Below, one piece after another: positions 1 to 8,326 of a DNA stretch of 64,000 nucleotides (positions are counted from its first letter, which is position 1; each line of letters opens with the position of its first letter). The notes under the pieces are model-generated. The model saw only the letters and a program-made list of their open reading frames with translations, had not been told where the DNA came from and made no database searches. The DNA is from Candidatus Hydrogenedentota bacterium (GTDB taxonomy: Bacteria > Hydrogenedentota > Hydrogenedentia > Hydrogenedentales > SLHB01): contig CAVUWV010000017.1 of assembly GCA_963745075.1 (NCBI GenBank), positions 123,947-187,946 on the forward strand, in the 5' to 3' direction. Position numbers and translations under genes: made by a program.

Positions 1-390
1 GAACGGCGCAAGGATGCGGTGTCGCTCATGACAATTCACAGTGCAAAAGGGCTGGAGTTCCCCTTCGTCTTCGTGATGGGCGTGGAGGAAGGGCTACTGC
101 CGCACGACAAGTGCGTGGGCGAACGGGCCGTCGAAGAAGAGCGCCGTCTGTTTTACGTGGCACTGACACGCGGAAAGCGCCATGTGACGCTATTCGAAGC
201 CATCTCCCGCGTGCGCAACGGGCGGGAGCGCATGGCGTCGACCAGCCGCTTCGTCAAGGAGATTCCCGAGTCCCTGGTGAATCGTCACATCCGGGCCGCG
301 CACGACATGGTGCGTGCTCGCGTCGAGCCACCTGCGTTGAAGACGCGCCGCGGCAAGCCTAGGGCATCGACTCGCAGTCGAAAGCGATAA
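1..390 (+). CDS. UvrD/PcrA/Rep family ATP-dependent DNA helicase, C-terminal part (5' truncated by window)
   Basis: SF1A motif V (LMTIHSAKGLEFP) and motif VI (EEERRLFYVALTRG), then SRFVKEIP; frame is open from position 1. Confidence 0.93.
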   Translation, partial: ERRKDAVSLMTIHSAKGLEFPFVFVMGVEEGLLPHDKCVGERAVEEERRLFYVALTRGKRHVTLFEAISRVRNGRERMASTSRFVKEIPESLVNRHIRAAHDMVRARVEPPALKTRRGKPRASTRSRKR

Positions 391-427
391 AAAACAAACG
401 GACTGCGGCTTCACACCGCAGTCCGTT
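389..427 (-). terminator. Intrinsic terminator for the minus-strand peptide cluster (possibly bidirectional)
   Basis: 12-bp stem AACGGACTGCGG(397-408)/CCGCAGTCCGTT(416-427); the A-run at 389-394 gives a U-tract on the minus strand. Confidence 0.75.
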
Positions 428-481
428 CGAATCACCATTCAAGCGCCGGTCGAACCGGCGACTCTACTTTCGAATACCAGA

Positions 482-691
482 TTACTGGCCGTCAATGACG
501 CCGTTGCCGTTCCGGTCACCCAGCAGCCCTTCGGGCAGCAGGGTCCCGCCGAACAGCCAGCCCCACCACTTCTCCATGGTCAGGCCGATGACGACGACGA
601 TATCCGTCAAGCTCATGATGTCAAAATAGTTTCTCGGCACCTGATAGGCGGTAGCCGGAAGCGCCTTCGAAACGCGACCGATGTGCTTCAT
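482..691 (-). CDS. Small peptide P1 (69 aa), MKH..PxxA leader family
   Basis: SD AAGGAGGT upstream; MKHIGRVSKALPATA leader shared with neighbours; core has a hydrophobic stretch, WWGW and a C-terminal DRNGNGVID loop. Confidence 0.8.
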   Translation of the reverse strand: MKHIGRVSKALPATAYQVPRNYFDIMSLTDIVVVIGLTMEKWWGWLFGGTLLPEGLLGDRNGNGVIDGQ

Positions 692-815
692 GTTCCTTAA
701 ACCTCCTTAAGGTTTGTATCCCGGTTGAAACGCATTTACGAACCCCGCCGCCCCGCGAATGCGGGACGAACTTCAACCCTGGGGTGCCCATGCCGGGCGC
801 GAACCCGGTGGGCAG

Positions 816-974
816 TTACACGTCTCGGGGATCCAAGGAGCCGTTGGTGAACCAAAGCTGATTGATGTAGTTGGTCTTGGCACCAGTACCCTTCAGCTCA
901 CCGCCCTTACCGAACCAGCCGAACCACCAAGCGGTCACCGGCGCATTCTTCGATATCTTGCGAACGTGTTTCAT
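816..974 (-). CDS. Small peptide P2 (52 aa), MKH..PxxA leader family; not in the ORF track
   Basis: Hand translation MKHVRKISKNAPVTAWWFGWFGKGGELKGTGAKTNYINQLWFTNGSLDPRDV*; SD-like GAAAGGGT upstream; alternative ATG at 980. Confidence 0.78.
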   Translation of the reverse strand: MKHVRKISKNAPVTAWWFGWFGKGGELKGTGAKTNYINQLWFTNGSLDPRDV

Positions 975-1151
975 TGTCATTTACCCTTTCGCGAAACACT
1001 CCCATTGCACACAGGCATGGGTTGTTTTTTCCAATCCGTTGTCAATAGGAGCTTCGTTCGCGGAAGCCTTGGAATGGATAGATACCGGAGCTATCCCCTC
1101 CATCTCTCCTTCCGCTTTTACCCTCACGGGATTGTGTCATTGATTCGAATC

Positions 1152-1304
1152 CTAGCTCTGCAGCCAGTTATCGAATAACGCGACGAGCCAGTTCTGTTGC
1201 GCAGGACGCAACTTCAACGGCCCAAAAATGTTCTTCAATTCGACCCACGCGACCTGCTCGGCACGCACGGGCTTTTCGGTCGACAGCACCTTCACATGCT
1301 TCAT
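1152..1304 (-). CDS. Small peptide P3 (50 aa), MKH..PxxA leader family
   Basis: SD GGAGGTG before the ATG at 1304; MKHVKVLSTEKPVRAEQVAWVELKNIFGPLKLRPAQQNWLVALFDNWLQS*. Confidence 0.8.
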   Translation of the reverse strand: MKHVKVLSTEKPVRAEQVAWVELKNIFGPLKLRPAQQNWLVALFDNWLQS

Positions 1305-1468
1305 ATGGCGATTCACCTCCCTTCTCCTTCCGTCTTGTTGTTGGTTGGAAACCATTTCCCAATCCGCTTGGTCCAAACAATTGACCTGTCTGTACCCCTT
1401 ATTGTGAACGATTTGATCGCAATAAGCAACCCCTTGTGGGTGTCAACAACGGCGGGCACCGTATGTGC

Positions 1469-3040
1469 TTACTGCGCCCCGTTCAGCGAGATCCCCATCC
1501 CTCGCAAATAATCGAAGAGTGAGAGGTCCCCGGATTGCAGTATCCACCCGGAAATCATGTTGAGGAAATCGGTTCCGCTCTGACTGGAGAAGAGCTGATC
1601 CAACTCTTGGAAGAACCCGCCCAACTGGTCGATGCTCGTGACCAGGTCCGCCGTTTGTGACGTTAACTGATCGATTCCCTCAGGAGATTCAATTGTTGTG
1701 TAAAGCTGTTCAAGCACATCAATTGCGGCCGCCTGCATATCCAGTCCGGCCAATTGCTCCTGAGAAAGAGACGCCCCGGTCTCCACCTGCTGGCCCAACC
1801 GCTGTACGGCCTGCGCAATGTCTTGGGCGGTATTGTAATCCCCTACCGCCATATAGTCTTGGCCGTATTCTAGCAGATTCTTCCCTAGATCGCAAAGGAA
1901 ATTGTACTGATCCACTCCCGCTGTCAACGCGGATACGGCCTTGGCCTGATCGGCCGGAAGCCCGCTTGCCATAAGCGCTTCCGCCTTTGCCATCGCCGAC
2001 TCCAGCGAATAGGCGCTGGCCGTGGGCAGCGTCTGCGCGATCCGCAACGCTTCCAGCGCCCCGGCGAGGTCGTTCTGTTCCAGCCGAAGCTTCGCTTCCA
2101 GGTAGTAGGGCAAGGCGTTATTGGGATCGAGCGTATGGAGCGTCGGCACTTGTTCGAGGGCTTGCGTCTCCGATTCCGGCGTCGCGGTCTCGTCCAACGC
2201 TTTTGCCAATTCAAGCTGAGCGGGCGCGTTGTCTGGCACCTGCCCCACCACCGTCAACAACACTTGAGCCGCTTCTTCGCCCGTAAGCGATTCCGCCGCC
2301 CCCAACTTCACCTGAGGCGACGAATCCGGACTTCGAGCCAAGTCGATTGCCTCCTCTTTCTTGAGGCTGGCCCATTGCATCAGGCGGCTTATTCCCCGGC
2401 TGTCATTCGACGCGTCGCGCCGTGCCGCCAGGATTTCGTCCATCGTCGGCGTGTCCAGCGCAGGGCTTTCCGTAGCTTCCATCTCGCCCGAAGGCTGTCC
2501 GGACCGCGTCTCGTCGGGGATTCGTTTGCGCTTCTCATCAAACTGCTTGAGCCGAGTCGCGATCGTGGTGTCCAGTTGAGGCGTTGGCTCGATGGCGCGT
2601 TCTATCGGAGTCTTCTCCGGCGTAACCAATTGATTGCCGCCGCCGGGCACGTTCGCCGGCGTTGGAACTTCTTTGAACAGCACGTACCCCAGCAAGGCGA
2701 GAATCGCGGCCGCCGCCGCCGCTACACCCAACCAGGTCCGGCCACGCTCCCGCCGGCGCGCGCGTTCGGCATCGATGGACACAATCTTCTCGGGACGATT
2801 GGCCTGAGCTACGGTGTCCATGACGGATTCGACCAAGTCGACCTGAGGTGTCTTGGAGGCAAAGGCGCGGCCCATGGCATCCAAGTCCGCGTAAGCGGAC
2901 TGTAGCCACATGTGCTCCCGGCGATACGCGTCCGACGAAGCGATTTGCGCTTCCACGCGCCGCGCCTCCTCGGGGCTCAACTCGCCCTCCAGGAGAGCCA
3001 GTAGCTCTTCCTGGATCTTTTCCAGTTCCCCAGTGTTCAC
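1469..3040 (-). CDS. Putative anti-sigma factor: N-terminal anti-sigma-like domain, one TM helix, TPR-like exported domain
   Basis: LLALLEGELSPEEARRVEAQI (zf-HC2-like region lacking the Cys ligands); TM WLGVAAAAAAILALLGYVLF; TPR-like LDPNNALPYYLEA; overlaps the ECF stop. Confidence 0.75.
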   Translation of the reverse strand: MNTGELEKIQEELLALLEGELSPEEARRVEAQIASSDAYRREHMWLQSAYADLDAMGRAFASKTPQVDLVESVMDTVAQANRPEKIVSIDAERARRRERGRTWLGVAAAAAAILALLGYVLFKEVPTPANVPGGGNQLVTPEKTPIERAIEPTPQLDTTIATRLKQFDEKRKRIPDETRSGQPSGEMEATESPALDTPTMDEILAARRDASNDSRGISRLMQWASLKKEEAIDLARSPDSSPQVKLGAAESLTGEEAAQVLLTVVGQVPDNAPAQLELAKALDETATPESETQALEQVPTLHTLDPNNALPYYLEAKLRLEQNDLAGALEALRIAQTLPTASAYSLESAMAKAEALMASGLPADQAKAVSALTAGVDQYNFLCDLGKNLLEYGQDYMAVGDYNTAQDIAQAVQRLGQQVETGASLSQEQLAGLDMQAAAIDVLEQLYTTIESPEGIDQLTSQTADLVTSIDQLGGFFQELDQLFSSQSGTDFLNMISGWILQSGDLSLFDYLRGMGISLNGAQ

Positions 3041-3678
3041 AAATCGTCCTTTGCCGACTGATATACGTCCCGCAGCGACTTCAGGATGCGGTGCAGTCGG
3101 GTTCGCACCGCGCCCTCCGTGCTGCCGACGATTTCCGCAATATCGCGTGCCTGCATCCGTTCAAAGAACCGCAAGGTCACGATTTCCCTGGACTCATGAT
3201 CGAGCGAGGCCAGCGCTTCCGCCAACAACTCATAGCGCTCGGCCATCATGAGAAGCCCATCCGGCCCGTCTGCCGGCGACTGCAACACCTCGCCGGTCTC
3301 CTCCCGGGCGCTGCTCGCGTATTCCTCGAGGGATTCCATGGGTACCGCCTTCTTGCGCTTCAACTCGTTCAGACAAAGGTTGCGCGCGATGCACAGTACC
3401 CAGGGGCGAAACTTTCGACTCGCGTCGAACCGCGCCCGGGCCACATACACGCGGATGAACGTTTCCTGGGCCATTTCCCGGGCCCGTTCCACGTCCCGCA
3501 CGTAGTGGAGGCAGAATCTGAAAATGTCGTTCTGGTACCGGTGTACGAGCGTGCCCAGAGCGTCCGCCGTGCCCTCGCACAGGAGGACCATCAGCGCCTC
3601 ATCGGTTTGAGTGCTCGCGCTCAACCGGTAATCCATTGCCGGTAACGAGTTACGAGGGCCTTGCGGTTTCGTTGCCAC
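3037..3678 (-). CDS. ECF sigma-70 factor (start uncertain, possibly 3639)
   Basis: Region 2 (AREMAQETFIRVY...FRPWVLCIARNLCLN) and region 4 (REIVTLRFF...DIAEIVGSTEGAVRTRLHR). Confidence 0.92.
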   Translation of the reverse strand: MATKPQGPRNSLPAMDYRLSASTQTDEALMVLLCEGTADALGTLVHRYQNDIFRFCLHYVRDVERAREMAQETFIRVYVARARFDASRKFRPWVLCIARNLCLNELKRKKAVPMESLEEYASSAREETGEVLQSPADGPDGLLMMAERYELLAEALASLDHESREIVTLRFFERMQARDIAEIVGSTEGAVRTRLHRILKSLRDVYQSAKDDL

Positions 3679-5296: not shown

Positions 5297-5325
5297 TTGA
5301 CAAGGGTTTTTCCCTATGCTAGACT
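5297..5325 (+). promoter_or_regulatory. Sigma-70 promoter candidate
   Basis: TTGACA-N17-TAGACT with a TG extended -10. Confidence 0.65.
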
Positions 5326-5386
5326 GCCGATGCTCGCAAGCGGAAGCGTTGTATCTCTTTATAATGGAGAGGAGGGTCTCGTGGGA

Positions 5387-5764
5387 ATGTTCAAGAAATC
5401 CTGGGTGTCGTTTTTCGCGCTGGTGCTGGTGGCTGCGGTCGTGATTACGCCGTTGGCCGTCGTCGCGGAAAGCTATGACCCCGATCAGGAAATTCCCGCA
5501 CCGACCGGTTTCGAAAAGCGGCTGACCAAGCTGGGCCGGGGCCTGTCCAACGTATTGCTGGGCTGGGCGGAAATTCCGGTGACCTTCGATGAGAAACTCA
5601 AGGAAGGCAAGCCGCTGGGATACCTCGTCGGCGTGGTACCGGTACTCGGCACGACCCGCGCATTCCTCCGTACGGGTACGGGCGTGTTCGAGATGGTCAC
5701 GTTCCCGGTGTCCGACCTGGAAGTCAATTTCGAGCCGATCCTGGAGCCCGAGTACATCTTCTGA
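5387..5764 (+). CDS. Exosortase-system-associated protein (TIGR04073-like)
   Basis: Signal peptide, then KLGRGLSNVLLGWAEIP and RTGTGVFEMVTFP. Confidence 0.75.
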   Translation: MFKKSWVSFFALVLVAAVVITPLAVVAESYDPDQEIPAPTGFEKRLTKLGRGLSNVLLGWAEIPVTFDEKLKEGKPLGYLVGVVPVLGTTRAFLRTGTGVFEMVTFPVSDLEVNFEPILEPEYIF

Positions 5765-8152: not shown

Positions 8153-8326
8153 CTAATCGGCGCAGCTTCCGCCGCCCTTGGAACACTTGATGCAGTCCGC
8201 GAGACTTGGCACGCCGAAGAGGGGGTATTCGCCGGCCAGGAACCCCCTGAAGCAATCCCAAAGGTTGCTTCCGACAGCCAATGCCGGCAGCCGCTTCATC
8301 CTGGTAACACGCTTTACATGACTCAT
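8153..8326 (-). CDS. Small peptide P4 (57 aa), MxH..PxxA leader family, 4-Cys core
   Basis: SD GGAGGGAG before the ATG at 8326; MSHVKRVTRMKRLPALA|VGSNLWDCFRGFLAGEYPLFGVPSLADCIKCSKGGGSCAD*. Confidence 0.75.
   Translation of the reverse strand: MSHVKRVTRMKRLPALAVGSNLWDCFRGFLAGEYPLFGVPSLADCIKCSKGGGSCAD

Follow-up and report, generated by a model that had tools for sequence, protein, structure and literature searches.

A three-gene peptide array of Hydrogenedentota as a putative satellite precursor operon in a RiPP-like pathway spanning the phylum

The peptide array and its conservation

In the window, by which we mean the whole 64,000-nucleotide stretch of DNA analysed (C17:123947-187946 of the source genome, G000), three small ORFs follow one another on the minus strand. 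Precursor gene A (1152..1304, 50 amino acids) has a leader of residues 1-15 and a core with near-invariant Lys24, Gln36 and Trp39; precursor gene B (816..974, 52 amino acids, or two residues longer from an in-frame ATG at 980) has a core that begins Trp-rich; and precursor gene C (482..691, 69 amino acids) is the most variable of the three. The cores end in Ser, Val and Gln, respectively, all contain Trp and Lys, and none contains Cys. The Shine-Dalgarno site of gene A (1314..1320, minus strand) is strong and conserved in the aligned upstream regions, that of gene C is also strong (701-708), and that of gene B is weak (AAAGGG, 984-989). A sigma-70-type promoter (1401..1429, minus strand) is predicted upstream of gene A, read from the sequence as TTGCTT, a spacer of 17 nt and CACAAT; it was not in the output of a consensus scan, and both hexamers and their spacing (TTGC.T-17-CACAAT) are kept across 30 aligned upstream regions. 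The array ends in an intrinsic terminator with a 15-pair stem (395..429, minus strand) that faces a convergent UvrD-like helicase gene, and RNA folding of positions 380-481 gave z = -6.05. Judged by these signals, the three ORFs are a small operon with its own conserved sigma-70-type promoter and a strong terminator, and its transcript is predicted to run from about 1395 to about 390. A sequence-only reading of this DNA had described three co-oriented minus-strand ORFs with a conserved leader, a Shine-Dalgarno site each and a terminator; the description holds, including the leaders it quoted, which we read from the sequence and its translations, with the site of gene B being weak and the stem lying as given here.

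The spacer between genes A and B contains conserved complementary 7-mers (1060..1115, minus strand) that could form an RNA stem, with 87% of cells paired; covariation in this stem is no higher than in shuffles, and RNAalifold found no consensus structure and no pairs in 18 A-B spacers. A conserved CGGAAGGAGA-like motif occurs twice, at 1322-1333 upstream of gene A and in the A-B spacer (1060-1115); the spacer copy is able to pair with the complementary 7-mer downstream. The repeated GGA motifs at these two places are reminiscent of CsrA/RsmA sites. Rfam gave no match over window positions 300-1600.

Are A, B and C versions of a single gene with a rapidly changing core? The three leader pairs are alike, with 0, 26 and 0 of 2000 shuffles attaining their scores, and the core pairs show no likeness above chance (515, 1855 and 166 of 2000), as had been proposed from the letters alone; Lys has to be added to Trp as a residue common to all three cores. 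Gene A was found in 33 of the 135 phylum genomes, namely the source genome, 31 of the 53 others of its family and one of another family. The order A-B-C is maintained across genera of family f1, with occasionally one gene absent or a fourth extra, and the array is absent from 14 regions of other families. Nei-Gojobori dN/dS values, set against window genes and taken from 9, 8 and 5 non-independent pairs of closer, well-aligning relatives (A, B and C), came to 0.09, 0.27 and 0.40 in the cores, while in the leaders they were 0.29, 0.19 and 0.08. Gene B, too, is conserved and under purifying selection. Because each core is under purifying selection, A, B and C are to be read as conserved paralogues, each a separately conserved orthologous lineage, rather than as hypervariable cores. 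The hypervariable core of the sequence-only reading is therefore not supported, and the conservation argues against the fast-diversifying kind of antimicrobial among the diverse products it had envisaged. It suggests that A, B and C fit envelope or signalling peptides better than bacteriocins, since long-term conservation favours a housekeeping role in the envelope or in signalling over arms-race killing.

Pfam and NCBIfam searches with the A, B and C peptides, and NCBIfam with 19 gene A orthologues, gave one chance match (E 0.22), and a gene B profile had a single chance match in the PDB. In the ESM Atlas, gene A retrieved 30 unnamed hypothetical clusters without Pfam. Its profile matches 80 database proteins; all the named ones are called 'hypothetical', and their organism labels are of the Candidatus Hydrogenedentota type except for one plain 'bacterium'. 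Many gene A homologues lie on contigs of ~900-1100 bases, matching the predicted transcript size, which may be assembled transcripts or the result of a length filter.

Parts of the stretch occur in 20 public runs from 15 studies, 17 of them recorded as RNA. The runs stem from relatives, because the best shares 0.27 of the words of the stretch and none reaches half. Contigs from four RNA runs, each of a different study, match portions of the array, in most cases with >90% identity; some span B-A or C-B, and one continues into the anti-sigma gene upstream. Relatives of the array are present in RNA libraries, which says nothing on level, strand or a single transcript. RNA contigs of the flanking genes are thin or absent; as the runs were selected by the array and contigs cannot rank genes, this carries no statement on expression level.

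The leader family and a remote cassette

How widespread is the leader? Trained on 199 peptides from other genomes, a profile gave 22 matches of at least 12 bits among 26,339 Shine-Dalgarno-preceded short ORFs of the source genome, compared with one among 34,959 ORFs of the reversed genome, which bears out the expectation that the motif occurs above chance; the scores of A, B and C themselves are inflated because the training set contains their orthologues. Two of the 22 (C10:71884 and C9:142786) were judged spurious, which leaves about 20 leader genes. They are mostly solitary and dispersed among unrelated genes, as is a fourth member in the window (8153..8326, minus strand, 57 amino acids, 12.7 bits), which has a Cys-containing core. 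Loose regular expressions for the leader returned mostly noise; a strict DNA pattern had matches in 77 of 135 genomes and none in the control. Just below the family threshold are two mutually similar peptides of 58-59 amino acids with a divergent, His-less leader (C18:193492-193668 and C9:115753-115932).

A rule that cuts after P-x-x-A or a similar Ala assigned a site in 208 of 216 peptides and gave leaders of 11-19 residues ending in Ala. Among the 216, 156 end in [AV]-x-A and 152 in P-x-x-A, in a collection whose rule demanded an Ala; the 100% figures for His3 and Ser/Thr are likewise not evidence, because collection rules fix both. Of the 208 sites, 73% have Pro at -4 and 63% have Ala/Val at -3, frequencies partly built in by the cut rule, and the P1' residues are highly mixed. 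On the Eisenberg scale, none of the 208 leaders has a 7-mer above 0.7, and the best 7-mer mean is 0.14. A Sec substrate was rejected for want of this hydrophobic h-region, although the A-x-A site with an upstream Pro is present, and a double-glycine bacteriocin was rejected because the leader does not end in Gly-Gly and the candidate exporter ATPase stands alone rather than in a peptidase-containing transporter; the leader had earlier been called neither double-glycine nor Sec, and rightly so. The 208 cores fall into 39 clusters and, computed for the whole family and per cluster, are mildly amphipathic, with 150 of 208 exceeding their own shuffled mean.

The genes that could serve such peptides lie together on a different contig (G000 C20:133687-140571), preceded by a predicted TTGACA-17-TATACT promoter. 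This cassette comprises two precursors, three GNATs (GNAT1, GNAT2 and GNAT3), a CPBP protease, an ABC ATPase, an ABC-2 permease and a homologue of the radical-SAM maturase CteB, and its genes are single-copy in the source genome. In a set of 20 regions from across the phylum, the complete cassette order with leader peptides directly upstream is seen in 17, one region is cut by its contig and two are rearranged. Where 6 kb or more of upstream sequence was available, 41 of 49 loci have GNAT1, GNAT3, CPBP and permease; the genomes of these loci overlap with those of the 20-region set. GNAT2 is a duplicate of GNAT3 (41% identical) seen in few loci only, so the usual kit is two free GNATs and a fused one. 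The protease belongs to PF02517 and keeps the EE..R, H and H..N/D motifs, and the stand-alone ATPase (346 amino acids; best match DrrA, below cut-off) has the ABC-2 permease as its partner. The cassette has no gene for a membrane-fusion protein or a TolC-like or other outer-membrane channel; the source genome encodes outer-membrane barrels. The CteB homologue was found in 124 of 135 phylum genomes, including 53 of 53 in this family, and in 83 of 86 high-quality genomes, in a tally that counts partial matches and one weak match. The sequence-only reading had inferred a family of precursors served by machinery encoded elsewhere and suggested a search for co-occurring peptidase, ABC exporter, radical SAM or RRE genes; the scattered members and the cassette are what it anticipated. 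Of the 205 ORFs neighbouring family members, 58 were scanned for maturation enzymes, and those outside C20 were unrelated genes except near C30:9898. There, an asparagine-synthetase-like amidotransferase gene, a possible local tailoring enzyme, immediately precedes a Lys/Pro-rich member of 32 amino acids (both within L023:8402-10474).

It would surprise us greatly if the peptides were small membrane proteins that function uncleaved, their common N-terminus being left over from duplication or acting as a tag for interaction. Their cores are hydrophobic and conserved like those of ordinary small proteins, and cleavage or modification has so far not been observed; but a single tag is borne by about 20 unrelated cores, it is itself under purifying selection (the leader dN/dS values of 0.08-0.29), and across the phylum it adjoins protease and exporter genes.

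What of the genes beside the array? Upstream lie an anti-sigma factor-like gene (1469..3040, minus strand), with a zf-HC2-like N-terminus and a TPR-like region whose matches are below curated cut-offs, and its partner, an ECF-type sigma factor gene (3037..3678, minus strand), which is a neighbour only. That the array encodes signals for, or targets of, this pair, independently of the C20 cassette, is very unlikely. Among 27 loci with 1 kb or more of downstream sequence, the anti-sigma gene precedes the array in 16, its TPR-like region could be counted in favour, and SCIFF products, those of the CteB type of system, are reportedly tied to quorum sensing (PMC8326336). However, the anti-sigma gene is present in 114 of 135 genomes as against 33 for gene A, the array adjoins another gene in genus g8, the array promoter is of the sigma-70 type, and the cassette precursors bear the identical leader type. 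An obligate link was thus rejected, the pair being far more widespread and apart from the array in g8, and the anti-sigma gene is probably a usual, not obligatory, upstream neighbour outside the peptide system. The anti-sigma-like protein (window 1469-3678) is mostly single-copy in those 114 genomes and has no family above cut-off.

The CteB homologue and leader recognition

The CteB homologue has 640 amino acids, and its model (pLDDT 87) contains an RRE, a barrel, a SPASM remnant and a C-terminal GNAT; Foldseek placed CteB first and SpeG-type GNATs next. Its N-terminal profile matches residues 5-104 of 5WGG (E 1.5e-13), so that a CteB-type RRE is present. The radical SAM motif CxxxCxxC is missing in 49 of 49 homologues, with a disordered variable loop in its place, and the TIGR03974 score is 77.7 against a cut-off of 425. 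Four Cys are invariant (393, 396, 402 and 425) and the Aux I ligands are lost, leaving fewer ligands than two auxiliary clusters call for; we take the four to be consistent with Aux II ligands. A search of 1.84 billion representatives gave 47 clusters that scored better than E 1e-16, with full-length members of ~600-680 amino acids; of the weaker-scoring proteins of ~450 amino acids, six were fetched and all six keep CxxxCxxC. P0046 and P0047 are divergent RRE-dead rSAM-SPASM-GNAT fusions that keep more of the SPASM Cys and, by sequence, are possible evolutionary intermediates. Close relatives of the cassette protein carry the labels Hydrogenedentota, -tes, -tales or Hydrogenedens in 58 of 80 records and other or no labels in 22.

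How would this protein recognise the array peptides? According to two reports, the precursor leader of CteB extends the RRE sheet as a β-strand (PMC6231123, PMC8326336). We translated SCIFF peptides from 43 of 80 ScfB-like metagenome loci, 34 of them distinct; 17 have [KR]-H-[IVL] near the start, and the His-anchored ones have V/I/L at position 7. The Hydrogenedentota leader has V/I/L at position 7 too, and resembles SCIFF leaders at positions 2, 3, 4 and 7. The earlier statement that the leader family is unrecognised stands as far as Pfam and NCBIfam are concerned, where it has no match, and falls for the first seven residues, which resemble SCIFF leaders. A complex prediction of the RRE (residues 1-95) with peptide A (1-30) scored 0.24 and 0.14, the mark being 0.32 and the controls unfolded, and speaks neither for nor against binding. 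Within the RRE, the strand predicted to take up the leader contains CFCFEC (residues 23-28; L021:2293-2607, C20), whose Cys are kept in 46-47 of 49 homologues and are absent from CteB; a metal site or an acyl relay might arise from these Cys and His3 of the leader.

Co-occurrence was followed in 30 chosen genomes: 18 have a strong match to the CteB homologue, and the other 12 are all those that lack one. In family f3, none of eight genomes (three genera) without a strong match has leader matches, and all five with the homologue do (1-4 each), a co-loss that may represent one to three events only. Three genomes, G057 (94% complete), G022 (93%) and G087 (60%), have leader-pattern matches without a match to the CteB homologue or GNAT3, and in G069 and G073 the cassette is present and the leader pattern gives no match.

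On balance, we favour the view that the array supplies satellite precursors to a RiPP-like pathway present throughout the phylum, one of RRE docking, Lys acylation, cleavage and export. The leader start K-H-[IVL]-x-x-[IVL] would bind the RRE of the CteB homologue as a β-strand, and the homologue would no longer do radical chemistry, acting as a docking scaffold instead. One or more of the SpeG/RimL-fold GNAT domains would acylate a core lysine with an acetyl or fatty acyl group, the CPBP protease would cleave after P-x-x-A, and the ABC-2 transporter would carry the hydrophobic, Trp-rich cores through the inner membrane. Their likely destination is the periplasm or envelope, the simplest choice because the cassette has no membrane-fusion or TolC-like gene. 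Most likely the pathway works like a RiPP pathway and descended from the SCIFF system.

Core lysine and comparison with known systems

Lys is present in 207 of 208 cores, where about 32 without it would be expected by chance, and residues of similar frequency show no such excess. Taking one core per cluster, 1 of 39 is without Lys against 3.8 expected, so the excess is weak after kin are collapsed. Within core families, a Lys column is retained in 42 of 45, 40 of 44 and, for gene A, 28 of 29 cores; the best column is retained in only 17 of 24 gene B and 9 of 18 gene C cores. No sharp sequence motif was found around the core Lys.

Are the GNATs active? In GNAT3 the glycine-rich CoA loop is altered, with Arg102 as the sole invariant residue there, and GNAT1 and GNAT2 appear more degenerate than GNAT3; for these reasons the cassette GNATs may be pseudo-enzymes. 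The same cassette could then be a pure exporter built of dead enzymes, in which the RRE docks, GNAT folds chaperone, CPBP cuts and the ABC transporter exports, and nothing is acylated. The altered CoA loops, the already dead radical SAM site, the high diversity of the cores and their mild amphipathicity all speak for this, yet the near-universal core Lys and the many invariant residues of GNAT3, Arg102 among them, together with a near-invariant Asn135, speak against it, and we think it unlikely.

Acylation might also fall elsewhere than on the core Lys, either on the new N-terminus after leader removal or on the leader itself, so that signal peptidase I, not CPBP, cuts at A-x-A. The P-A-x-A end of the leader is compatible with signal peptidase I too, as are the Pro at -4 and Ala/Val at -3 of the 208 sites; the GNAT fold is common to the RimL/RimJ N-alpha-acetyltransferases, and other RiPP GNATs reportedly acylate N-termini once the leader is off (PMC13647313). 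Against this, the residues at P1' vary widely, a hydrophobic h-region is missing from every leader, the operon carries an intact CPBP protease, and the core Lys would be left unexplained, which makes it quite improbable. We prefer Lys acylation to both N-terminal acylation and modification-free export because of the Lys excess, the GNAT fold and the precedent of the selidamides.

The selidamides (kamptornamide, phaeornamide and nostolysamide) are reported to be acylated by GNATs on the side chain of Lys or ornithine in a manner that depends on the leader (PMC8784127, PMC13647313), and Lys side-chain acylation by a GNAT is the proposed likeness here. Their leaders are of the NHLP or Nif11 type with a Gly-Gly site, unlike the 11-19 residues ending in Ala here, and they form lanthionine rings via a class II synthetase, of which there is none among the cassette genes; leader type and the missing synthetase exclude selidamide identity. 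IatT (9IY3), a lasso-peptide Lys acetyltransferase, acts on the mature peptide without leader, according to a preprint (bioRxiv 10.1101/2024.12.31.630886). Its likeness to the cassette is a SpeG-like GNAT fold with a peptide lysine as substrate. The GNAT3 model matches 9IY3 with Z 16.8, rmsd 3.1, 179 aligned residues and 18% identity, which shows the fold only because SpeG, PseH, RimJ and IatT folds are all tied near Z 17, along with many unrelated GNATs.

The nearest relative is the SCIFF system (CteA-CteB, 5WGG; TIGR03974, PF13165), which shares the RRE, TIM-barrel and SPASM architecture of the cassette protein and a leader start of K-H-[IV]-x-x-[VIL]. The differences are clear: the cassette protein lacks CxxxCxxC and the Aux I ligands and has a fused GNAT; GNATs, CPBP and ABC-2 genes have been added; A, B and C have Cys-free cores in place of the six-Cys core of PF13165, which had no match over cut-off in the source genome; about 20 dispersed precursors replace one adjacent gene; and the leader has S/T at position 8 and a P-x-x-A end, where SCIFF leaders have Thr at position 6. 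Ranthipeptide identity is excluded by the Cys-free cores, the missing CxxxCxxC and the single Aux-type Cys set. Daptides are reminiscent of the array in their several short-leader precursors, hydrophobic helical cores, RRE-guided processing and intramembrane leader peptidase (PMC10036551). Their peptidase is an RRE-fused site-2 protease, and their chemistry requires an invariant C-terminal Thr (PMC10036551); the protease here is a PF02517 CPBP member with no such fusion and A, B and C have no C-terminal Thr, which excludes daptide identity. Phenol-soluble modulins with PmtCD are reported to be amphipathic peptides of several loci, also served by one dedicated ABC exporter. To our knowledge, phenol-soluble modulins have neither a cleaved leader nor a docking scaffold. 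We found no description of the present system in the open-access literature, although a genome-mining supplement may mention it; the system is a candidate new RiPP class, familiar in its RiPP logic, with a type of cassette for which no description was found.

Could the satellite precursor operon belong to something more general? The retooled radical-SAM maturase could be viewed as the receptor of a general, phylum-wide route of peptide lipidation and export, a tentative and somewhat doubtful extension. Any short ORF gaining the 15-residue SCIFF-derived tag and a lysine would be acylated, cut by CPBP and sent to the envelope, in a lipoprotein-like sorting independent of Sec and Lgt. The route would serve both abundant, conserved peptides of the envelope, with A, B and C as examples, and a changing lineage-specific set.

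The favoured pathway, if true, would be a new RiPP class with a catalytically dead radical-SAM enzyme as its leader-recognition part, in a protein that is nearly a core gene of a widespread uncultured phylum. With this array, some of its substrates would be ancient, conserved peptides whose genes turn up in RNA libraries from the environment, which favours a basic physiological role over occasional antibiotic production. One machine appears to take dozens of unrelated cores, which is sought by peptide engineers for acylation and export, and the CPBP protease would gain a concrete candidate substrate and cut site. The complete pathway amounts to seven small genes and is rebuildable in E. coli.

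Three further observations concern other parts of the genome and window. A 51-amino-acid ORF at C10:373502-373657 has a TTLAxGEE motif repeated twice, and we take it to resemble a graspetide precursor. At least six loci (C1:141370, C8:19626, C10:502797, C14:74093, C15:177628 and C24:206603) share an identical upstream and N-terminal sequence, pointing to a dispersed repeat or mobile element. On the plus strand of the window, positions 5297-5764 encode an exosortase system-associated protein that matches TIGR04073 above cut-off.
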